A stretch of 35,439 bases of DNA from Alphaproteobacteria bacterium (lineage in GTDB: Bacteria > Pseudomonadota > Alphaproteobacteria > G02398745 > G023898745). Under the pieces are notes generated by a model. That model did not search any database. It had not been told where the DNA came from and saw only the letters and a program-made list of their open reading frames with translations. Below are positions 128 through 33,906 of this stretch, piece by piece. The DNA lies in NCBI GenBank assembly GCA_027366195.1, contig DAHXKW010000146.1:1-35439 (forward strand), written 5' to 3'. The position numbers and the translations under genes are program-made. The stretch's first letter is position 1; every line of letters starts with the position of its first letter.

Positions 128-484
128 ATGGGATTAAAAAACCAAGAAGAAATGTCAATGGAAGAAATCTTGGCGTCTATTCGGCAATATGTATCCACAA
201 CCAATGATCGGCCATACAATGATACCGTTTCGAAGGTGGTTAAATTGACGGAAGAATTGGTAGAAGATGACGAGGAGGAAGTGACAGCACCACGTATAGT
301 GGAGACTTCGGCTAAACTGCGTTCTTCCCCTTTTTCCAAACTTCAAGAAGTAAAAAAGGTGTCCGAACAAGAGACCTTTTTTATGCAATTTTTTCGAGAT
401 ATCGTTTTAGAATGGTTAGACAGGCACCCTGACTTTGTTGAAAAAGCTGTACACAAAGCTATTAAGAAAGAATTAGAGGACTAA
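128..484 (+). CDS. popZ: PopZ-like / DUF2497 family protein (pole-organizing protein homolog), 118 aa
   Basis: The N-terminus MSMEEILASIRQYV matches the conserved MEEILASIRRII start of alphaproteobacterial PopZ/DUF2497. An acidic middle (EELVEDDEEEV) follows. The C-terminus FFRDIVLEWLDRHPDFVEKAVHKAIKKEL resembles the PopZ C-terminal LLRPLLKEWLDQNLPRIVE helix. The true start could be the internal ATG at MSMEE. Confidence 0.7.
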   Translation: MGLKNQEEMSMEEILASIRQYVSTTNDRPYNDTVSKVVKLTEELVEDDEEEVTAPRIVETSAKLRSSPFSKLQEVKKVSEQETFFMQFFRDIVLEWLDRHPDFVEKAVHKAIKKELED

Positions 485-4667: not shown

Positions 4668-6044
4668 ATGGATCGCCTGGCGTTGGCCGCAGAGCTGATC
4701 ATCGGGCATGATTATGAATTAGCAATAGAAATGCTGAAAAAAGAACAGTCTTCAACAGGACTCTATTGGTTATCATTACTATATCGTTTATTCGATAAAT
4801 ATGCGGAAGAAAAAGAAGTTGTAGAAGCTGGCTTAAAAAGCACTTTAGAATCTGATTTGGTTGAGTATTTTTCTGCTCGGCAATATTGGCAGGATTTAGA
4901 CATTAATAAAAAAATGGTGCCACGCCAGTCTTTGCATATGCCGAGAAGTCCTTTGAAGATTCCAGATCCTGAAGATATAAGAAAGATGTGTTTTGTGACG
5001 GGTGGGGATTCAAATTATTTTCCACTTTTTGTGGAGGCAATTGAATCAATTCGTGCAACAAATTCATATAAGAATTGTGATGTGTTCGTATTTGATTGTG
5101 GTCTTACAGAAGAACAGAAGCGACATCTTCTAGAGGACTTACAGGTTAAAGCAGTGAGTGATCCAGGTTGGGATGTTAATGTGCCAATGACCTGCCAGCT
5201 TAATGAGCAAGGTGCGATTACTCAGTACCAAACACCTATTGGTTTTAAATGTATGGTAGCTAGACCCCATATGGATAAACATTTTCCTGGATATCGTTAT
5301 TATATGTGGATTGATGCTGATGCGTGGATTCAAGATGAGCGGGCAGTTGATTTATATTTAGACTATGCCAAAAGTCAGGGAATAGGGTTATCACATCACA
5401 TCACGTTTGATACTTATGATGACCACAATTGCTATTTTGTCCCACCTGTTTTAACGCCCGAAAATAAGATTTTCTTGAAAGGTAAACCTGCTGTTATTGT
5501 TTCTGCATTCTGTATAGATATTGAATCGGGTATATTCGATCAATGGCGTGAAAATTTCTATGACAATATAAAACAACAAGGATTTTGGTGGAATACGGAA
5601 GAACAGACTTTAGGATTAACTTTTCATCAAAGAAAGTTAAAGCATTTGGTTGAGCATCAAAACCACGCAGCTTTAGTGAGAGAAGGATTACCAATTGTTT
5701 ACGATAATGACAACGTCTTGCACTCGGCGCGTTCAAATCAGGTGTTAGGTACAATCCATATGAGTTCTGGGAAATGGTACCACTATTTCCCATCCCAGAA
5801 ACGCACGCACCCTATAAGAACGAATGAAGAATATCAGCATCACGTGCAACAGTATGGGTGGGGAAGCTTACGTGAGATTTGTTTTAAACACAAAATTGCG
5901 CCGAATCAGCTTGATGTACCCAATAGACATTTAATTTCTTGTAGATTCCGTGTATGGCCTTGGGAAGATAAGCCTGAGATAAAAGAGACACTTATTCAAG
6001 AAGCTAAAAGGGTATTGGTAAAGGGGGATGTATGTCACGTTTAA
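4668..6044 (+). CDS. GT-A fold (GT8-like) DxD nucleotide-sugar transferase-like protein with N-terminal helical module, paralog 1 (458 aa)
   Basis: CFVTGGDSNYFPLFVEAIESI...FVFDCGLTEEQK...ARPHMDKHFPGYRYYMWIDADAWIQDE resembles the GT8 blocks (xxAADDNY / DxGisxExk / RLxxPxLFPxxxKVLYLDxDxxV). No signal peptide or TM segment. A C-terminal FRVWPWEDK motif is shared with the next three genes. Confidence 0.8.
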   Translation: MDRLALAAELIIGHDYELAIEMLKKEQSSTGLYWLSLLYRLFDKYAEEKEVVEAGLKSTLESDLVEYFSARQYWQDLDINKKMVPRQSLHMPRSPLKIPDPEDIRKMCFVTGGDSNYFPLFVEAIESIRATNSYKNCDVFVFDCGLTEEQKRHLLEDLQVKAVSDPGWDVNVPMTCQLNEQGAITQYQTPIGFKCMVARPHMDKHFPGYRYYMWIDADAWIQDERAVDLYLDYAKSQGIGLSHHITFDTYDDHNCYFVPPVLTPENKIFLKGKPAVIVSAFCIDIESGIFDQWRENFYDNIKQQGFWWNTEEQTLGLTFHQRKLKHLVEHQNHAALVREGLPIVYDNDNVLHSARSNQVLGTIHMSSGKWYHYFPSQKRTHPIRTNEEYQHHVQQYGWGSLREICFKHKIAPNQLDVPNRHLISCRFRVWPWEDKPEIKETLIQEAKRVLVKGDVCHV

Positions 6045-7363
6045 ATGTTGCCGCTCAGCTAATTCGGGATGAAGAATATAAAACTGCGCTTGACATGCTT
6101 AAGCGGGATAACTCTTCTCAAGAAAGTTTATACTGGCAGTCTCTGATTTGTCGTTTGTTTGATCATTATGATGAAGAAAAGAAAATAATTGATATGGGGA
6201 TGCAAAAACATCCTAATTTTGTATATATGCAGGAAAGAGTGGTTTGGCATAAAAAGCCACTTTTTGATCGTTTGGTGCCACGGCAATCCCTACGTATGCC
6301 ACGAGATCCTTTGTTAACACCATCACAGTCAGCACTTGATCAGCTTTGTTTTGTAGTTGGTGGCGATAGCCATTATTTTCATATGATTGTTGAGTGTATA
6401 GAGTCTATTCGAGGGACAAGCCTTTATAAAGATGTGGCTGTTTGTGTTTTGGATTGTGGCCTTACAGATGACCAAAAGCATTATCTTGTTGAAGCTTTAA
6501 AAGTGGCTGAGATTCTTGCCGTTGATTGGCAGTATAAGGTCGATGGCTTTAAAACTTGTGATGGACCAGCACCAGAAGGTAAGTTAACACCATTGAATCC
6601 AGGACTTAAGGCTATTATGTCCAGGCCATTTTTGCATGATCTATTTCCTAATTATCGTTTTGTTTTTTGGATGGATGCTGATTCGTGGATACATGATGAA
6701 CGTAGTATTGATCGCCATCTTGATCTTTGTTTAAGGCAAGGTGTGGCGTTTGCTTTTCCTGATCGCATGCCGTTTTGTCAAAGATTGGTTTACCAATATC
6801 CTGTTATTGAACAGCGGTACAAGGAAAAATTGGCAAATTGGTTTCATGTTTCAGGAAATCAATGGGTTATTGATGCTCAAACGAACTTTTTTGAAGATTG
6901 GAAAAAATATTTAGATTATCACGCACAAAAATATGGATTTTGGCGAGCGATTGATGAAGAAAGCGCCATGATCGTTATGGAAGAACGTGGTATGACTGAA
7001 ATGCTGACTGAAAGAGATTTGTATATGTTGTACGCTTTTGGTTTGCCTGTTGTTAAAGACCAGTCGCAAACACTTTATCATCCCTGGAATGGGCAGGTAG
7101 TTGGTATTTTTTCAATGTTCCATCATAAATTTCAATATTATTGGCCAACAGTATTGTCGCCTTCAGGCGCTTTGTCTGAAGAACAGCTTAGGCAACATGT
7201 CCAAAATTATGCTCAATTATTAAAGATGGTGCAGCAAGGTCAGGATCCCTGTGGTTTGTATCCCGGTCAACCACAAATATCCCAGCACTTTAGAGTGTGG
7301 CCATGGGCAGATAAAGTTGAAATTCGTAGACTTTTAAAGGAGGTATCGCAATGTCAAAGCTAA
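6032..7363 (+). CDS. GT-A/GT8-like DxD transferase-like protein, paralog 2 (443 aa)
   Basis: CFVVGGDSHYFHMIVECIESI...VLDCGLTDDQK...SRPFLHDLFPNYRFVFWMDADSWIHDE...FRVWPWADK. SD AAGGGGGA lies at 6021-6028. The start overlaps the stop of paralog 1 by 13 nt. Confidence 0.8.
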   Translation: MSRLNVAAQLIRDEEYKTALDMLKRDNSSQESLYWQSLICRLFDHYDEEKKIIDMGMQKHPNFVYMQERVVWHKKPLFDRLVPRQSLRMPRDPLLTPSQSALDQLCFVVGGDSHYFHMIVECIESIRGTSLYKDVAVCVLDCGLTDDQKHYLVEALKVAEILAVDWQYKVDGFKTCDGPAPEGKLTPLNPGLKAIMSRPFLHDLFPNYRFVFWMDADSWIHDERSIDRHLDLCLRQGVAFAFPDRMPFCQRLVYQYPVIEQRYKEKLANWFHVSGNQWVIDAQTNFFEDWKKYLDYHAQKYGFWRAIDEESAMIVMEERGMTEMLTERDLYMLYAFGLPVVKDQSQTLYHPWNGQVVGIFSMFHHKFQYYWPTVLSPSGALSEEQLRQHVQNYAQLLKMVQQGQDPCGLYPGQPQISQHFRVWPWADKVEIRRLLKEVSQCQS

Positions 7364-8709
7364 AATTAGCTACAGCTTTCATTGCTGATCAGAATTACGA
7401 GTCAGCCAGAGACATATTAGAGAAGGAACAAAGAAATACTCACAATGTTTACTTTTTGTCTCTGCTCTACCGTTACTTTAATCAAATGCGTAAAGAGCAG
7501 ACTCTGGTAGAACAGGCAGTATCATTGGGATTAAGTAGTCAATATATTGAGGAACGAAGAAAATATTATAGTTTGCCAATTTTCGAACAACTTGAACCTC
7601 GACAATCCTTAATTTTACCTAAGGATCCAGCCAGAATTGCATCTGCAGGATCTTTGGAACAGCTCTGTATTGTAACGGGGGGTGGTAGCGATAAGCCTTA
7701 TTTTTATTTAATGACCCAACTGTTGGAGTCTTTAGAGGCTTGTCCAACTTATAAAAATGTTAGAAAAGGTATTATCGATTGTGGCTTAACAGATGAAGAT
7801 AAAAATTATTTGCTCAAAAATTTTTCGAATGTGGAAATAAAAACACCAAATTTGAATTTCAAGTTGCCAGACAAGGTCGAGCGTTTTACGCAAAAGGGTA
7901 ATTGGGGAATTTTGGCAAGACCTTTTATGGATAAACTTTTTCCGGGATACCGTTATTACATGTGGCTTGATACAGATTCTTGGGTGCAGGACGAGAGGAG
8001 TCTAGATAATGTGTTATGCGATGCAGAAAACTATAAACTGGGTGTTGTAGCCAGCCATTGTGGACGTGTTTATGCAGGTTCTTTTTGGGAGCGTTGGCAT
8101 AAAACGCCAATTGTGCCTGAATATATGTGGCAATTTTTGCATGATAATCCCTTCCCATTATTAACGGCCTCATGCTTTTGTATTGATGCGAAGAATACCG
8201 ATTTTTTCCCTAAATGGGGTAGATATTTGGAAGATCAAATGGAAAAAAATGGGTTTGATTGGGGCAACGATGAAATTACGTTCAATTATACAGTGCATAA
8301 AGATTTTCAGGTTTCTCGGGTTAATAGTCTTAACTATAACTTTGATTTGGGGGGAAGGGGGTTACCCAGGCTTAAACTAGATGAACCTGATGTTTTATAT
8401 TCAACGCTTGATGAAGAAGTCGTGGGAATCCTTCATTTATGTGGGATGGGATTGCATAAAAGTTATCCCCTTTGGCCGTGTCTTGTGCACCCAAGCTCTT
8501 TCACTGAAGAAGTTTTTCAGGCAAACCGTCAACGTTATCAACAGATTGTTCAGTTTTGTGATGCACATAAAGTTATGCCAGATCAGGTTAATGCAGGTAG
8601 CAATAGTCAAATAACTTCTTGTCATTTTAGAGTTTTCCCTTGGCGTGATAAGCAATCAATAATGAGTGCGTTGAAAAAGGAGGCACAAATATGTCTACAG
8701 AGCAATTAG
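7351..8709 (+). CDS. GT-A/GT8-like DxD transferase-like protein, paralog 3 (452 aa)
   Basis: CIVTGGGSDKPYFYLMTQLLESL...IIDCGLTDEDK...ARPFMDKLFPGYRYYMWLDTDSWVQDE...FRVFPWRDK. SD AAGGAGG lies at 7337-7343. There is a 13 nt overlap with paralog 2. Confidence 0.8.
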   Translation: MSKLKLATAFIADQNYESARDILEKEQRNTHNVYFLSLLYRYFNQMRKEQTLVEQAVSLGLSSQYIEERRKYYSLPIFEQLEPRQSLILPKDPARIASAGSLEQLCIVTGGGSDKPYFYLMTQLLESLEACPTYKNVRKGIIDCGLTDEDKNYLLKNFSNVEIKTPNLNFKLPDKVERFTQKGNWGILARPFMDKLFPGYRYYMWLDTDSWVQDERSLDNVLCDAENYKLGVVASHCGRVYAGSFWERWHKTPIVPEYMWQFLHDNPFPLLTASCFCIDAKNTDFFPKWGRYLEDQMEKNGFDWGNDEITFNYTVHKDFQVSRVNSLNYNFDLGGRGLPRLKLDEPDVLYSTLDEEVVGILHLCGMGLHKSYPLWPCLVHPSSFTEEVFQANRQRYQQIVQFCDAHKVMPDQVNAGSNSQITSCHFRVFPWRDKQSIMSALKKEAQICLQSN

Positions 8710-10037
8710 TTGCGCAATTAATTATTGATAATGAGTGGGATGCGGCTACCCAGATTTTGAGTAAAAGGCTAGAAACATCCAGTCACGTCAAAACACTATC
8801 CTTGCTATATCGATATAACAATCAATTCGAGCAAGAAAAGCAAGTTATCAGCCAGGCGCAAGAGTCGAGTTCGTATATAAAACAAAGGCGGGATTATTTT
8901 AATAAGTCAATTTGGGAACAATTAGAGCCACGTCAAAAGCTTTATATTCCAAAAGATTTTACCAAAGTACCCACTTTGGAAACTTTAGAGCAACTTTGTT
9001 TTGTAACAGCAGCAGGTAGCGACCACCCTTATTTTAGTTTGGTTTGGCAACTTATCGAGTCGCTCAAAAATACGAGTACATATAAGGATATTCCTATTAT
9101 GGTATTTGATGCGGGATTAACCGATGATGATAAGCAGAAGCTTCTATCTACTTTTTCTAACATTACCATCGTAGATCCGGGTTGGGATGTTGAAATAAAT
9201 ATGAACGCCACACGGGTGACACAAGCGGGATTGAAGGGATGTACAGCCCGACCTTATATGGATAAACATTTCCAGGGGTATAGATATTACATGTGGCTTG
9301 ATACGGATGTTTGGATACAAGATGAAAGAGCGTTAGATTCTGTTGTAAAACAAGCTGAAGAAGAGGGTGTGGGATGTGTGCAAGACCATTTATATGATAA
9401 TTGGCAAAATAGTTTTTGGGATATGAATAATCGTGTTAAACCAATAGTTCCTAAAGACTTTAGCAATTTTTTGACAACAAAAAAGACTGTTACGGGAGGA
9501 ACATTTTGTATTGATAAGCAATCTGGTTTTTTTGAAAAGTGGCAAGCTTATTTCAAACTAGCTATCGATGAATGTGGTTTTACGTGGGGGAGTGAGGAAA
9601 TTACTTTCTTATATACTGTCAATAAAATGCTTCCTAAAATTCAGCCCATTAGTCGTGTACATCAATTTTCTGGGTGTAGAAATGGTTTTCCCATTATTCA
9701 TGAAAAAGATCAAATATTATATACACCAGACAGCAATCAAATTATAGGTATTGTGCATTTAACAGGTTTTCTTTCTTTAAAAAATGATCCGTTTATACCT
9801 GTTGTATTGTTACCTAGGGATCAATTTGTACCGGTCAATCACCTAGAACAGAATAAGCAAATTTTTAATCAGTGGTTAGCCGCTCATAAGCAAATGGATA
9901 CTCAGCATCAGATTAATGTGTTTGAGAACACAAAAATGACTTCATTTCATTTCAGGACATACCCATGGAAAGATAAATCAGCAATACGAGAGGAGTTATT
10001 TCAAAACGTCAAAGCTGTCTTGGCTCAAGAGGCGTAG
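8691..10037 (+). CDS. GT-A/GT8-like DxD transferase-like protein, paralog 4 (448 aa)
   Basis: CFVTAAGSDHPYFSLVWQLIESL...VFDAGLTDDDK...ARPYMDKHFQGYRYYMWLDTDVWIQDE...FRTYPWKDK. SD AAGGAGG lies at 8677-8683. There is a 19 nt overlap with paralog 3. Confidence 0.8.
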   Translation: MSTEQLVAQLIIDNEWDAATQILSKRLETSSHVKTLSLLYRYNNQFEQEKQVISQAQESSSYIKQRRDYFNKSIWEQLEPRQKLYIPKDFTKVPTLETLEQLCFVTAAGSDHPYFSLVWQLIESLKNTSTYKDIPIMVFDAGLTDDDKQKLLSTFSNITIVDPGWDVEINMNATRVTQAGLKGCTARPYMDKHFQGYRYYMWLDTDVWIQDERALDSVVKQAEEEGVGCVQDHLYDNWQNSFWDMNNRVKPIVPKDFSNFLTTKKTVTGGTFCIDKQSGFFEKWQAYFKLAIDECGFTWGSEEITFLYTVNKMLPKIQPISRVHQFSGCRNGFPIIHEKDQILYTPDSNQIIGIVHLTGFLSLKNDPFIPVVLLPRDQFVPVNHLEQNKQIFNQWLAAHKQMDTQHQINVFENTKMTSFHFRTYPWKDKSAIREELFQNVKAVLAQEA

Positions 10038-16890: not shown

Positions 16891-18111
16891 TTAACGTAAA
16901 ATACGGACGGGATCTAAACGTGCAGCGCGCCAAGATGGATAAAAGGAAGCAAGTATTGAACAAGATACACTAAGGCCACAAATCAAACTCACATCTGTCC
17001 AATTTAATAGAGCAGGAAGCTGGTTAATACCATAGGCTTCAGCGCTAAAAAGTTGAGTTCCTAAAATATGTTCCACAAACAAACGTATGGTTTCTATGTT
17101 GTGTACGAATAAAATACCTAAGATGAACCCACACAAAGTTCCTAAGACACCAATAGTCATGCCATTGATTAAAAATATTCGACCTATAGCATGCTGGCTC
17201 ATTCCCATAGTGCGTAGGATGGCGATATCTTTTGTTTTATCTTTAACAAGCATCACAAGGCTGGAGACAATGTTTAAGACGGCAATCATAATAATAAGTG
17301 TTAGAACAATAAACATAACATTTTTTTCAATATGTAAAGCTCTTAAGGCTGGCGCATTAGCATGCCCCCAGTCTTGAACATCAACTTTAAATTCTGATAG
17401 TGCCTTTACTATTTTAGGTGTCATGCCTTCTGGTGGTTTTGTAAATACTTCTATATGCGAAGGTCCCATTTCATAAAAGCTATTTGCATTTTCCAGACTG
17501 GTGAAGACAAAGCGTTTATCGTATTCCCGCATACCTAAATCAAAAATTCCGACGATTTTAAAGTTGCGTTCTTTTGTGATTGTTCCCAAAACAGACTCAT
17601 CCTGACTAGGATAGATCAAAGTAATATAATCGCCCATTTGTAAATTGTACTCTTCGGCCATTCGTATACCAATTAATACAGTATCTTCTTTTTTTAAATT
17701 TAGGACAGAGCCATTAATGACTTTGCTATTAAAATACTTGTGTTGTTTTAAGCGACTAGGATCGTGTCCAAAAACAATAACACCATTAAAGCGTCCGTGT
17801 GATGACATGATTGTAGGTGTTTCTGATACAGGCATGGCTTGGGTGACAAAAGGTAGGTGATCCAACTTTTCTAGAACTTGATTCAAATTTACAGCACCTG
17901 TGGGGTAGACATAGACATGTCCCTTAATTCCAATCAGTTGTTGCATTAATTCACTACGAAAACCATTAAGAACAGAAGTAACGATGATTAATGCAGCGAC
18001 GCCCAACATAATACCAACAAAAGACAGCGCGCTGATGAGTGAGATAAATCCATCGTTTTTTGGTGAGAAAAAGTAACGAAATGCAATAAATCGTTCAACT
18101 GATTTGAACAT
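16891..18111 (-). CDS. lolC: Lipoprotein-releasing system permease, LolC/LolE family
   Basis: 406 aa. The N-terminus FIAFRYFFSPKNDGFISLISALSFVGIMLGVAALIIVTSVLNGF is the LolC/E signature. A large periplasmic MacB-like domain and a C-terminal FtsX-type 3-TM bundle follow. Confidence 0.9.
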   Translation of the reverse strand: MFKSVERFIAFRYFFSPKNDGFISLISALSFVGIMLGVAALIIVTSVLNGFRSELMQQLIGIKGHVYVYPTGAVNLNQVLEKLDHLPFVTQAMPVSETPTIMSSHGRFNGVIVFGHDPSRLKQHKYFNSKVINGSVLNLKKEDTVLIGIRMAEEYNLQMGDYITLIYPSQDESVLGTITKERNFKIVGIFDLGMREYDKRFVFTSLENANSFYEMGPSHIEVFTKPPEGMTPKIVKALSEFKVDVQDWGHANAPALRALHIEKNVMFIVLTLIIMIAVLNIVSSLVMLVKDKTKDIAILRTMGMSQHAIGRIFLINGMTIGVLGTLCGFILGILFVHNIETIRLFVEHILGTQLFSAEAYGINQLPALLNWTDVSLICGLSVSCSILASFYPSWRAARLDPVRILR

Positions 18112-18124
18112 GCACTAAAAAATA

Positions 18125-18175
18125 TTCTTCTTCCCGCTATACATAAATCCTACCGCTTTATCGATCCAATGTACA
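18125..18175 (-). repeat. Direct repeat copy 1 of the MerR-gene 3' end (flanks vapBC cassette 1)
   Basis: ttcttcttcccgctatacataaatcctaccgctttatcgatccaatgtaca is near-identical to 19513-19565 and 18783-18833. It overlaps the last codons of vapC-1 in a different frame from the MerR reading frame. Confidence 0.8.
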
Positions 18176-18544
18176 TTTTTTAGGTTGATAAGGATAATAA
18201 ATATCTGGTTCTTTTTCAGAAAAATCTTTTGTATTACGTGTAATCAAAGTAGCATTGTGTGCTTTTGCTGATGCCCAGATAAGTGCGTCTGGTAATTTTA
18301 TTTTGTGTTGTTTGCGCAAACTGACAGTAATTTCTGAAATTTTTTGATCAATATTAACAATATGAAAGCGCAGGAAAAAATCTTTAACTAATTCTTGATT
18401 AACCATGTCGTTAACACCAACCATAACTTCAATCCATGTCACAATAGAAATCATGGGAGCAGGATAGGTTATAAATATGTTGCGAGTCTCCGGCACTCCT
18501 TTGATGTAATCGATCAGAATATTTGTATCAAACAGAGTCTTCAC
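18158..18544 (-). CDS. vapC: PIN-domain toxin VapC (cassette 1)
   Basis: MKTLFDTNILIDY (the first acidic PIN residue in the FDTN context), conserved acidic residues downstream (E~39, LPDALIWASA, TRNTKDF). It overlaps the upstream small antitoxin ORF by 17 nt. Confidence 0.85.
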   Translation of the reverse strand: MKTLFDTNILIDYIKGVPETRNIFITYPAPMISIVTWIEVMVGVNDMVNQELVKDFFLRFHIVNIDQKISEITVSLRKQHKIKLPDALIWASAKAHNATLITRNTKDFSEKEPDIYYPYQPKKCTLDR

Positions 18545-18779
18545 GTTCCCACTCGGATCTTAGTTTTTGTTGAATTTCTACACCGTCTATTGCTTTATCT
18601 TTCCATAATCCGAATATAGGATCATTTATTGAGCTGGGATGTTGCGGTGACTTGAGTAGCAGTCCATCGCTTCTGAGCTCAAAGTCCAGATGGTCAGAAT
18701 CAAGATGAGCTTGCTGGAGTAAACTCTGAGGGATAGCAATATTTGTATATTCTCCAGTATAGGTAGACGTCATGAACAT
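18528..18779 (-). CDS. vapB: VapB-like antitoxin (AbrB/SpoVT-like N-terminus), cassette 1
   Basis: An 83 aa ORF lying upstream of and overlapping vapC. Its N-terminus TSTYTGEYTNIAIPQSLLQQAHLDSDHLDFEL is paralogous to the antitoxin at 19239-19505. The start may be the ATG at 18773. Confidence 0.7.
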   Translation of the reverse strand: MFMTSTYTGEYTNIAIPQSLLQQAHLDSDHLDFELRSDGLLLKSPQHPSSINDPIFGLWKDKAIDGVEIQQKLRSEWEREDSV

Positions 18780-18782
18780 TAT

Positions 18783-18837
18783 TTTTCTTACCGGTATACA
18801 TAAATCCTACTGCTTTATCGATCCAATGTACAACGTC
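18783..18837 (-). repeat. Direct repeat copy 2 of the MerR-gene 3' end (between the two vapBC cassettes)
   Basis: tttttcttaccggtatacataaatcctactgctttatcgatccaatgtacaacgtc matches 19515-19569 with only a few substitutions. It is non-coding here. Confidence 0.8.
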
Positions 18838-19242
18838 CTATTCTTGTGTCCAATCAACTAAATTTAATTCAGAAACTCGGATAAATTCATGTGTATTGTT
18901 TGTTACGCAAGTTATTTTGCGGGCTTGAGCTGTCGCAGCAATGAGAATATCAAAACTACCTATCATTTTTCCTTGTTTATGCAAAGCTGTCTTTATTTCA
19001 ACTGCTGCTATTTGTTCTGAATCTCCGAAGGGATAAGTTTGTACAACAGTACAAAAATTTTCCCATCTTTTCCTTTGCTTCTGAAAATTATTTGGATGAA
19101 GTGCAAAACCGTAATTAATTTCAAGTTTTGTAATGATTGAAATTCCTAAATCGTTAGGATCTGTCCGTTCTAGGTGTTTGGATACGCAAAAATCATCTTT
19201 TAAAAATTTCGAGACAATACAGGTGTCTAAAAGATATTTCAT
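18838..19242 (-). CDS. vapC: PIN-domain toxin VapC (cassette 2)
   Basis: MKYLLDTCIVSKF, FDILIAATA and VTNNTHEF are PIN acidic-residue contexts. It has an ATGA-type 4 nt overlap with the upstream antitoxin ORF. Confidence 0.85.
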   Translation of the reverse strand: MKYLLDTCIVSKFLKDDFCVSKHLERTDPNDLGISIITKLEINYGFALHPNNFQKQRKRWENFCTVVQTYPFGDSEQIAAVEIKTALHKQGKMIGSFDILIAATAQARKITCVTNNTHEFIRVSELNLVDWTQE

Positions 19243-19505
19243 AGATCTACTGGTTTTGGTTCTATCAATTCAGCGCGCAGCTCTGCAATACCCGGAAAAC
19301 TATCATCGTGATAAGGAGTGAAAGTTCCTTTTGGCCAATTTTTGTGAGGCTTGGAATCGGATTGGTTCGGTTCGATTTGCTGGGTGATTACTAAACGTTC
19401 TCCACATACTTCAAACGAAAGAGGCACGGAATCAAGATGTGCCTGTATAAGCAATTCGTAAGGAATAGGGATGTTCTTATATTTCCCTGTATATGTGGAT
19501 TCCAT
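19239..19505 (-). CDS. vapB: VapB-like antitoxin, cassette 2
   Basis: An 88 aa ORF. MESTYTGKYKNIPIPYELLIQAHLDSVPLSFEV is paralogous to the cassette 1 antitoxin. It begins 4 nt after the MerR-like stop codon. Confidence 0.7.
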   Translation of the reverse strand: MESTYTGKYKNIPIPYELLIQAHLDSVPLSFEVCGERLVITQQIEPNQSDSKPHKNWPKGTFTPYHDDSFPGIAELRAELIEPKPVDL

Positions 19506-19509
19506 GCTC

Positions 19510-20280
19510 TTACTTTTTCTTCCCGCTATACATAAATCCTACTGCTTTATCGATCCAATGTACAACGTCTTGCGGAATGTTATGCCAATTATCAGACTCT
19601 TTTAAAGAGGGTTCTTCAAATTTACCCTGTTTGTAACAATCCCAAATCACTTCTCCTAACTCGTGGTCTTCCCAATACCTGTTTGCAAGGTCCATCCACT
19701 GTTTTGCATAAGATTGACCCACAACTCCGTATGGATCTTCATGTATATTTAATTTAACCTCTGCTACCAAAATATCCCATTCTTTTTCATATTGGATTAG
19801 TTCTTCTCCAGAAAGCTTAGGCATGGCTGCAAATTTTTTCAGTTGTTCTGGCGTAAAAATCTTACCAGCCCATGATTGCTCTAATTCTTTTGTCATTTTG
19901 TAAACTCCTATCAAATTTAAGGTTGAAGATAAATCAACTGACCCGGTAAGTTTACTATCATCAATAACGGCTGTTAAAATGTCTATGGCTTCTTTGAGTT
20001 GCTGTGTTTTCTGCTGTAAGAAATCTTTTTGCATTTGAAGAAGCTGAGATATATCAATTTTCCCTGATAATATTGCCTTAATCTTTGATAGTTCAAAGCC
20101 AAAAGACTTTAATGCCAATATTTGCTGAAGTTTTATCAAATCAGTCTCGGAGTATACACGATAACCATTTGGCAAACGCGTTGATGCTTTCAATAAACCT
20201 ATTTTGTCATAATGTTGTAGTGTTCTGGCTGATATGCCAGTCAACTCGCAAACGTCGTGTGTATACCATCTTGTCATCAT
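19510..20280 (-). CDS. MerR family transcriptional regulator with TipAS-like C-terminal domain
   Basis: The N-terminal wHTH reads YTHDVCELTGISARTLQHYDKIGLLKASTRLPNGYRVYSETDLIKLQQILALKSFGFELSKIK (MerR signature). A coiled-coil follows, then a ~130 aa helical C-terminal domain as in the TipAL/Mta/SkgA group. Confidence 0.88.
   Translation of the reverse strand: MMTRWYTHDVCELTGISARTLQHYDKIGLLKASTRLPNGYRVYSETDLIKLQQILALKSFGFELSKIKAILSGKIDISQLLQMQKDFLQQKTQQLKEAIDILTAVIDDSKLTGSVDLSSTLNLIGVYKMTKELEQSWAGKIFTPEQLKKFAAMPKLSGEELIQYEKEWDILVAEVKLNIHEDPYGVVGQSYAKQWMDLANRYWEDHELGEVIWDCYKQGKFEEPSLKESDNWHNIPQDVVHWIDKAVGFMYSGKKK
19513..19570 (-). repeat. Direct repeat copy 3 (master copy): actual 3' coding end of the MerR/TipA-like gene
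   Basis: It encodes ...VVHWIDKAVGFMYSGKKK. The same ~50-55 nt recur at 18783-18837 and 18125-18175. Confidence 0.8.
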
Positions 20281-20298
20281 ATATCCTCCTCAATTTCC

Positions 20299-20329
20299 AT
20301 TTTCCACTATGACGCAACGTTGGGCTCAA
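20299..20329 (-). promoter_or_regulatory. Candidate MerR-type autoregulated promoter: -35 TTGAGC, 19 bp spacer containing palindrome CAACGTTG, -10 GAAAAT
   Basis: Minus strand: TTGAGC (20329-20324), a 19 nt spacer and GAAAAT (20304-20299), about 10 nt upstream of the GAGGAGG SD. The perfect 8 bp palindrome CAACGTTG lies at 20315-20322 inside the spacer. A 19 bp spacer is the hallmark of MerR-family promoters. Confidence 0.3.
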
Positions 20330-20409
20330 GGGGATTTATTAAAAAGTAGTCTTACAAGTGTGTTTTGGCAACTGTACAATAAATGTGTGCATAGATAAGT
20401 CTGTGTTTT

Positions 20410-33576: not shown

Positions 33577-33906
33577 TTATTTCTGATTGGGTTTGCCAGT
33601 GCCAAAAGCAATATTTTTTTCTGTGATAAGGCGTTTGACTATTTTGTGGGCAGCTTCATCCCATTTTTTATAATCATCATAAGAGATAGCTTGTAATTGA
33701 ACAGCAAGTTTCAAAAGCCCCCTCATATCATCAGAAAGCAAAATAGCATCAGTTAAGGCGTGTTTCTGCATTTTGTGATTTTTATGCCTTTGATAATTAA
33801 GGTAAATACCTAAAGCTGTATCTTGTAATTGTTTGAATAGTCTACTATCTGATGTTTGTTTCCAAACAGATTCGGTCAGTTGATAGATGTCGTCGTTTAG
33901 GTTCAT
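33577..33906 (-). CDS. Hypothetical helical protein (109 aa), possibly four-helix-bundle (23S rRNA IVS protein/Avd-like)
   Basis: The ORF ends one nucleotide before the uvrC ATG. Its predicted all-helical pattern and segment order loosely resemble the four-helix-bundle family. This is a weak, by-eye call. Confidence 0.5.
   Translation of the reverse strand: MNLNDDIYQLTESVWKQTSDSRLFKQLQDTALGIYLNYQRHKNHKMQKHALTDAILLSDDMRGLLKLAVQLQAISYDDYKKWDEAAHKIVKRLITEKNIAFGTGKPNQK

Follow-up and report, generated by a model that had tools for sequence, protein, structure and literature searches.

The 35,439-nt contig DAHXKW010000146.1 of an alphaproteobacterium, the whole of which is referred to below as the window, carries two vapBC toxin-antitoxin (TA) modules located between the gene of a MerR/TipA-like regulator and a lolC/E gene, and the junctions of this array are occupied by copies of a short direct repeat, R. 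The genes merR, vapB2, vapC2, vapB1, vapC1, and lolC/E follow each other in this order, all on the minus strand, and the order of the units is merR–R–vapBC2–R–vapBC1–R–lolC/E, each downstream unit being located directly behind one copy of R. The merR gene (19510–20280) encodes a protein of 256 aa with Pfam MerR_1 and MerR matches, and its last 19 codons form copy A of the repeat (19513–19569, minus strand; GACGTTGTACATTGG...GAAGAAAAAG), which lies inside the coding end of merR and encodes DVVHWIDKAVGFMYSGKKK. The TAA stop codon of merR (19510–19512) is followed 4 nt beyond by the ATG of vapB2 (19239–19505), which has no leader of its own and codes for an antitoxin of 88 aa, 58% identical over its full length to the antitoxin of a related locus, L035 (type 2, see below). 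The vapC2 gene (18838–19242) overlaps vapB2 by 4 nt and encodes a PIN toxin of 134 aa (Pfam PF01850, 3.7e-11), and its TAG stop codon abuts copy B (18781–18837, minus strand), an intergenic copy that begins right after this stop with the left end GACGTT. The second antitoxin gene, vapB1 (18528–18779), belongs to the set called type 1 below, and its product is 57–58% identical to the antitoxins of two other loci, L033 and L034; the first ATG (18779) gives a protein of 83 aa and the ATG at 18773, which aligns with the homologues, one of 81 aa. It overlaps by 17 nt with vapC1 (18158–18544), which starts with GTG and encodes a PIN toxin of 128 aa (PF01850, 2.9e-15) that is 55% identical to the VapC of L034. 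Copy C (18124–18175, minus strand) starts with TGTACA, overlaps the end of vapC1, and is located 12 nt before the ATG of lolC/E (16891–18111), a normally essential gene of a lipoprotein-release permease with Pfam MacB_PCD and FtsX matches.

Copy C contains the last codons of vapC1 (CTLDR and the stop), which are read in a frame other than that of merR. The VapC of L034 ends in ...YPYYL*, and the native C-terminus of vapC1 has been replaced by the codons of copy C. Both cassettes end at, or at most about 12 nt from, the native vapC stop. The usual acidic positions of PIN domains are readable in both VapC1 and VapC2, and L034 and L035 show the same antitoxin–toxin pairing; by the PIN toxin and the overlapping small antitoxin gene upstream of it, both modules are predicted to be type II VapBC systems. 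The GC content of the cassettes (33–40%) is the same as that of the flanks, and the composition is even across the array, which ruled out a foreign base composition.

The repeat and its junctions

R is 52–57 nt long and is present in the window in three direct copies, of which B and C lie downstream of merR. Its 36-nt core was found at exactly three sites at ≤1 mismatch versus 0 in 100 shuffles, and a search of the window with a profile built from R found no fourth copy. Pairwise identity over 50 nt (TGTACA to GAAGAA) is 48/50 for A and B, 47/50 for A and C, and 45/50 for B and C, copies A and B being identical over the whole core (36/36). The similarity of A and B extends 159 nt into the vapB N-terminus at 74%; among the 120 nt at the start of the two vapB genes, however, only 72 are identical (Fisher p = 5e-6 against R), an identity of 60% as compared with 92% in R. 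The copies are not alike at the left, where A and B begin with GACGTT and C begins with TGTACA, 6–9 nt further in. At the junctions, microhomologies of 1–5 nt are readable (e.g. AA, CAA), as would be expected for illegitimate joins.

These data agree well with the preliminary description of the window, in which three repeats had been reported at the end of merR, after vapBC2, and after vapBC1, and which were recovered at 19513–19569, 18781–18837, and 18124–18175, respectively. The identity given there as about 90% came to 90–96% over 50 nt in the alignment of the three copies, and the boundaries proved to be better conserved than the cargo, as had been proposed (90–96% for R against 60% for the start of vapB, p = 5e-6). 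The further claims that R supplies the C-terminal codons and the stop of vapC1 in a different frame, that the antitoxins are similar only at their N-termini, and that the PIN toxins are very divergent were also borne out (CTLDR and the stop in copy C; 23/40 residues and 72 of the first 120 nt; BLASTP E = 0.1).

The MerR C-terminus encoded by copy A (...HWIDKAVGFMYSGKKK) is kept in orthologues with as little as 44% identity, the loci of which mostly show no vapBC. Since the C-terminus is conserved in orthologues that are mostly free of vapBC, R can be taken as the authentic 3′-end of merR, from which it follows that B and C are the secondary copies; the alignments clearly indicate that both were derived from the native merR tail.

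At its other end, every copy of R stops 1–12 nt short of the start codon that follows (that of vapB2, vapB1, or lolC/E), the distance to the vapB ATGs being 1–7 nt. The vapB genes of L034 and L035 are preceded by a near-identical leader of their own (CATGCTACAATTTTTCATTRGGT; the L035 antitoxin has CATGCTACAAT) with an extended −10-like TGCTACAAT. This leader is identical at 23 of 24 nt between the two loci, far above the conservation of the genes, and a related one is found in a third homologous locus, L036. It is absent in front of vapB1 and vapB2 of the window, where R occupies its position, 4–5 nt from the ATG, and where the genes resemble their homologues only from the ATG on. The same was seen at the far end of the array: the nearest relatives of lolC/E (L037 and L038, 82% and 79% identical) have a common conserved leader and unrelated genes upstream, and in the window this leader is replaced by copy C, the nucleotide similarity starting at the ATG. 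These comparisons leave little doubt that the native leaders of the two vapB genes and of lolC/E were replaced by R. Because the leaders are absent and R abuts the start codons, the array is best described as a string of tightly trimmed, promoterless units with only R between them. No terminator-like site was found on the minus strand between merR and lolC/E. To judge from this arrangement, expression of the cassettes and of lolC/E probably requires either transcripts that read through from merR or signals within R. The possibility that R is the native promoter/operator of the antitoxin family was ruled out by the other conserved leader carried by the homologues in L034, L035, and L036.

Ancestry of the cassettes and TA turnover around merR

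VapB1 and VapB2 share 23 of 40 residues at their N-terminus only, and VapC1 and VapC2 are barely alignable (BLASTP E = 0.1) and not detectably related. The closest relative of VapBC2 is the L035 module (VapB 58% and VapC 65% identical), and that of VapBC1 is the L034 module (VapB 58% and VapC 55%). Accordingly, two sets could be distinguished: type 1, consisting of VapBC1, the L034 module, and an orphan antitoxin of L033 (55–70% identical), and type 2, consisting of VapBC2 and the L035 module. As each cassette is closer to a module of another organism than to its neighbour, a simple tandem duplication is excluded, and by the same comparisons the two cassettes evidently have independent ancestry.

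The antitoxin family is very small, with 6 proteins among 5.8 billion clusters, and the search of 1.84 billion representatives gave 4 matches below 1e-10. One of its members, in L036 (958–1517), has the same rare N-terminal domain fused to another C-terminal tail, and its partner is a toxin of the PemK/MazF type in place of a PIN toxin. Judged by their sequences, the antitoxins are thus a modular family in which one N-terminal domain is combined with varied C-terminal tails and toxins. No Pfam match was obtained for the window antitoxins, and remote relatives found by means of the family profile carry the MazE_antitoxin domain (PF04014). The top matches of a low-confidence structure model (pLDDT 65) were MazE, SpoVT, and AbrB, all non-significant (E about 1). 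The N-terminal domain common to the antitoxins (about 40 aa) probably binds DNA as a divergent member of the MazE/AbrB type, and the C-terminal tail of VapB1 resembles the tails of YiiF and CopG-family VapB proteins (2k5j and 7by2).

The array was also recovered in contigs assembled independently from other samples, which match the window at 100% identity over all of its junctions: L007 extends from merR through cassette 2 and copy B into the start of vapB1, L039 begins within copy B and continues through cassette 1, copy C, and lolC/E and beyond, and copy C and lolC/E are contained in both L040 and L041. L041, a Logan contig, starts at 18153 of the window, 1 nt past the sole position by which the left half of copy C (G) differs from that of A and B (A), and no 31-mer is common to the R copies at this point. 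Its start could mark an assembly-graph branch due to a recombinant R allele in the sample concerned.

When metagenomes were scanned for the R pattern, a second organism was detected in Hainich groundwater (L025/L033), L042–L045 being further contigs of the same locus. In L033, the stop codon of a tRNA_bind-domain gene is directly followed by GACGTTGTACACTGGATTGATAAAGCGGTAGGATTTATGTATAGCGGGCAGAAGAAAGGATAA, 5 nt, and a type 1 vapB, and there is no merR gene. This R stub is 64 nt long and starts with GACGTT; its left end and its spacing to the ATG are the same as those of copy B in the window. The vapC behind it (383–420, minus strand) is cut to 9 codons (MKALFDTNY...), and a third contig set for the L033 antitoxin has the same arrangement. 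These contigs clearly indicate that the R–vapB junction recurs in a second organism. The scan of the genome collection, in which the source species is not included, gave 14 loci with the R pattern, all of them single matches; no vapB or vapC homologue was present among these loci, and a merR homologue (49% identical) was found only in L019. In another locus (L026, 3755–4870), a more distant merR homologue (44% identical) has the C-terminal domain partly matched a second time directly behind it (query residues 128–247), which may correspond to the long forms of about 314 aa that exist among the merR homologues.

The slot between the tRNA_bind-domain gene and a DUF2948 gene has varying contents across related lineages, namely, merR alone (L001), phd(-yoeB), merR, and relB/parE (L002/L003), a type 2 vapBC with its own leader and a remnant of the merR promoter/operator after vapC (GATCAATGTAACATCGTAGAG; L035, 1704–1760), or R–vapB (L033), and the similarity among these five loci breaks exactly at the flanking stop codons. 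Elsewhere, a relB-like gene is located behind merR (L008), or a type 1 vapBC just upstream of a merR (L034). Since the contents of the slot vary among relatives, the neighbourhood of merR can be regarded as a hot spot of TA modules in which merR was repeatedly lost, and the TA turnover around merR is clearly indicated by these alignments. The sites of merR orthologues thus include those without cassette (L001), with other TA modules (L002, L008), and with an R stub (L033). No flanking repeat was found around the relB/parE module behind merR in L002, which speaks against the site-specific mode of insertion suggested in the preliminary description. In the nearest relatives of lolC/E (82% and 79%), merR is not adjacent to this gene, and different genes lie upstream of lolC/E there, so that these relatives offer no comparison for an empty merR–lolC/E site. 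A conserved MerR-type promoter/operator (TTGAG..CAACGT/ATGTAACGTC.TAGTG...GGAATTGAGGAGG) is present upstream of all merR orthologues examined (window, 20281–20340; L001, 2150–2206; L002, 4225–4282; L034, ~1790–1840).

Possible routes of array assembly

The Pfam scan of about 38 open reading frames (ORFs) revealed no integrase or transposase domain in the 35-kb window, as had been stated in the preliminary description, and neither a tRNA gene nor an intI integrase or attI site beside the array was found in the same region. Folding of the three R copies on both strands gave −1.0 to −3.3 kcal/mol (z −0.44 to +0.97); as R does not fold beyond the shuffled controls, it is not attC-like, and no convincing inverted-repeat core was found in it. 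No Rfam family was detected in or near R at E ≤ 1, and the sigma-70 scan found no promoter common to the three copies, the best hexamers seen by eye (TTGGAT-18-TATGTA) matching at 3/6 positions each. R does not resemble a site of the Xer/dif type: all R copies are direct, and the two arms of the E. coli dif sequence are matched at 5/11 and 3/11 positions. The 1.5-kb array had no blastn match in PLSDB, and the single R match in viral contigs was not merR-like by tblastn.

Considering these results, we give about an even chance to the reading that promoterless R–vapBC units were accreted stepwise, the merR tail being the site of recombination. How the units were inserted, in what order, and how they are expressed is what we infer here. 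A unit carrying a copy of R would pair with the resident merR tail, and a single crossover of the Campbell type, or an unequal exchange between merR–vapBC alleles, would insert the unit and duplicate R. Two such rounds would give R–vapBC2–R–vapBC1–R–lolC/E, the C-terminus of MerR would stay intact through each insertion, and a deletion between two R copies would again leave a working merR–R–gene junction. RecA-type recombination on 36–48 nt of near-perfect identity would suffice for these steps, so that no dedicated recombinase would be needed.

Two observations may be traces of such exchange. The merR genes of the window and L001 are 77% identical overall, and their third codon positions agree at 19/23 sites in the tail versus 131/232 elsewhere (p = 0.015), an excess that fits exchange or conversion at R. 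Between L045 (1–742) and L042 (3248–3990), 60/338 positions (17.8%) differ left of R, in the tRNA_bind-domain gene, and so do 5 of the 21 at the beginning of R, where a 2-nt indel breaks the frame, versus 0/376 from mid-R onward. This switch of identity, if real, would be a recombination breakpoint inside R.

Several points weigh against stepwise accretion. It leaves the first duplication of R unexplained, the left ends of the copies are uneven, and neither a recombinase gene in the window nor a circular form was seen. The third-position signal comprises 23 codons only, and L045 is a contig of ~1x coverage that may be chimeric. The single R and the truncated vapC of L033 also fit a plain deletion of merR. 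Variation in cassette number, which the preliminary description had suggested looking for, was not found: the array is the same in all four assemblies of the organism. Lastly, the genome and metagenome scans found R–vapB junctions in only two organisms, and the antitoxin family is tiny.

The preliminary description had regarded serial site-specific insertion of cassettes that restore the 3′-end of the target gene as the expected origin of the array, with a hot spot exchanging TA modules as the alternative and a simple old tandem duplication as less expected. The derivation of the copies from the merR tail, the independence of the cassettes, and the occurrence of R–vapB without merR elsewhere are supported; the site-specificity is not, given that there is no recombinase in 35 kb, no inverted repeat or hairpin in R, uneven left ends, and microhomologies at the junctions. 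A TA hot spot around merR is supported by the varying modules that flank this gene in related lineages, and the doubt about duplication by the relationship of the cassettes to L034 and L035 and the barely alignable VapC pair.

Apart from stepwise accretion, the copies of R may be stubs of merR duplicates or larger merR–vapBC segments formerly located ahead of vapBC1 and lolC/E, cut to ~55 nt by reductive deletions and kept alike by gene conversion with the live tail, an explanation to which we give a low probability. Remnants of this kind do exist in the relatives: L033 retains only the merR tail with the 9-codon vapC, L035 retains the merR-operator remnant, and the indel in the first 20 nt of R gives L045 a pseudogene-like look. 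The microhomology at the junctions would fit as well. However, three merR copies and three deletions would be required, each deletion halting a few bases from the neighbouring stop or start codons, and two independent deletions would both have to end at GACGTT. Moreover, the non-coding copies are 90–96% identical, while the adjacent genes diverged anciently.

It is rather unlikely that R is the attachment site of a dedicated site-specific system, in which a tyrosine or serine recombinase encoded elsewhere would move the vapBC cassettes in and out as circles. The cassettes are compact, lack promoters, and all point the same way, and the repeats between them exceed the cargo in conservation; these features, together with the identical left ends of copy B and the L033 stub beside a stop codon and the apparent breakpoint inside R between L045 and L042, would suit such a system, and elements are known to accrete in tandem at target-gene ends (PMC5704250). 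Nevertheless, the window carries no integrase or transposase, R has neither a fold nor a convincing inverted-repeat core, copy C starts 6–9 nt further in than A and B, microhomologies of 1–5 nt are found at the junctions, the relB/parE module of L002 stands behind merR with no repeat, and no R copies were present in the viral contigs or plasmids searched.

A further explanation, which we consider improbable, is that R was kept as a portable leader containing a promoter, a ribosome-binding region, or a coupling signal; this would explain the conservation of R, not its origin, and could be combined with the others. Every copy stands 1–12 nt before a start codon in place of a native leader, and the native leader of the antitoxin family is likewise far better conserved than the genes (23/24 nt, L034 versus L035). 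In addition, no terminator interrupts the minus strand from merR to lolC/E, and lolC/E, as a normally essential gene, must be expressed. On the other hand, the three copies have no promoter in common, with the best hexamers at 3/6, their Shine–Dalgarno-like bases differ, no Rfam match was obtained, and the merR tail of L001 is equally conserved with no gene after it on that strand.

Tandem duplication of one merR-tail–vapBC segment followed by divergence would account for the A/B similarity that continues into the vapB N-terminus (159 nt, 74%), but this and an assembly artefact are highly improbable and were rejected, since each cassette has its nearest relative elsewhere, the VapCs are unrelated beyond the PIN fold, one event would yield two R copies where there are three, the identity of 92% in R contrasts with 60% in the vapB codons next to it, and several independent assemblies are 100% identical across all junctions.

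The rest of the 35-kb window consists of housekeeping genes, such as leuS, yajC, uvrC, a NifU-like gene, and genes of ABC transporters, and some other features are present in it. Four tandem paralogous ORFs of 443–458 aa on the plus strand (4668–10037), ~1.3 kb apart, have a common 95-nt block at 66–76% identity, and only the fourth has a Pfam match, a weak one to Glycos_transf_2. The 1–2100 region contains a tandem duplication of ~0.9–1.0 kb with several blocks at 79–87% identity, in which a GC-rich hairpin-like element (ACTGTCATCCTCGCGAAAGCGAGGAT) is found at 1036–1108 and 2007–2079; the ORFs of this duplication gave no Pfam match. A small ORF by uvrC (33577–33906, minus strand) has a weak match to the 23S rRNA intervening-sequence protein family.

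Comparison with known systems and implications

The array shares its layout with integrative-element accretion and with integron arrays and fails the defining molecular features of both. In Streptococcus thermophilus, integrative elements of the ICESt1 type and cis-mobilizable elements (CIMEs) accrete in tandem at the 3′-end of their target, the fda gene (PMC5704250). As in the accretion of CIMEs and integrative and mobilizable elements, the units in the window are flanked by direct repeats of the target-gene 3′-end, they are stacked in tandem, an integrase of their own is dispensable, and the target gene is intact. The units described here, in contrast, are of 0.66–0.73 kb and carry a TA pair only, no integrase is encoded in the 35-kb window, the repeat ends are uneven, and neither excision nor a variation of occupancy among the assemblies was observed. 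TA cassettes are also found in chromosomal superintegrons, and integrons include attC clusters without an integrase (CALINs). The array resembles them by its promoterless, trimmed cassettes in one orientation, the TA cargo, and repeats more conserved than the cargo, but R is a non-palindromic, unfolded tail of a coding gene, no intI or attI is present in the window, and the cassettes number only two.

In Acinetobacter plasmids, Xer-dependent dif modules, which are small and often TA pairs, are located between short recombination sites and are shuffled without an element-encoded recombinase (PMC6449649, PMC13141974). The likeness lies in small TA units bounded by short repeats; however, the pdif sites are 28 bp long (XerC arm, 6-nt spacer, XerD arm) and alternate, whereas R is ~55 nt long and all of its copies are direct. 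The minimal mobile elements of Neisseria represent another kind of exchange, in which cassettes are swapped at hot spots between conserved flanking genes. The varied cargo in the tRNA_bind–DUF2948 slot of L001, L002, L003, L033, and L035 is similar to this, but the window array has internal repeats originating from a cargo gene, which the model does not require. In Microcystis aeruginosa, a ParE/ParD-like module stands behind the orthocaspase gene MaOC1 with two identical 152-bp direct repeats (PMC7935541). This is likewise a chromosomal TA pair downstream of a gene and fenced by direct repeats; its repeats, unlike R, are intergenic, contain an inverted repeat, and do not represent the coding end of the upstream gene, and there is a single module.

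We think it doubtful that the merR tail serves as the attachment site of a new, integron-like cassette system with a recombinase acting in trans on a non-palindromic coding site. If a dedicated recombinase were found, the locus would represent a new cassette-capture system; if RecA suffices, it would represent a simple and general route by which the repeats of gene tails can build TA arrays. It is known that TA modules are mobile and accumulate in hot spots, but the way in which small chromosomal ones that lack an element of their own travel is mostly obscure. The locus offers a concrete route, in which the tail of a resident gene would travel with promoterless vapBC units both as the substrate of recombination and as the junction, and since the tail serves as the junction, modules could stack behind the gene without damaging it. 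Furthermore, the essential lolC/E, whose own leader is gone, now stands behind two toxin modules, which could tie the expression of lolC/E to the array.

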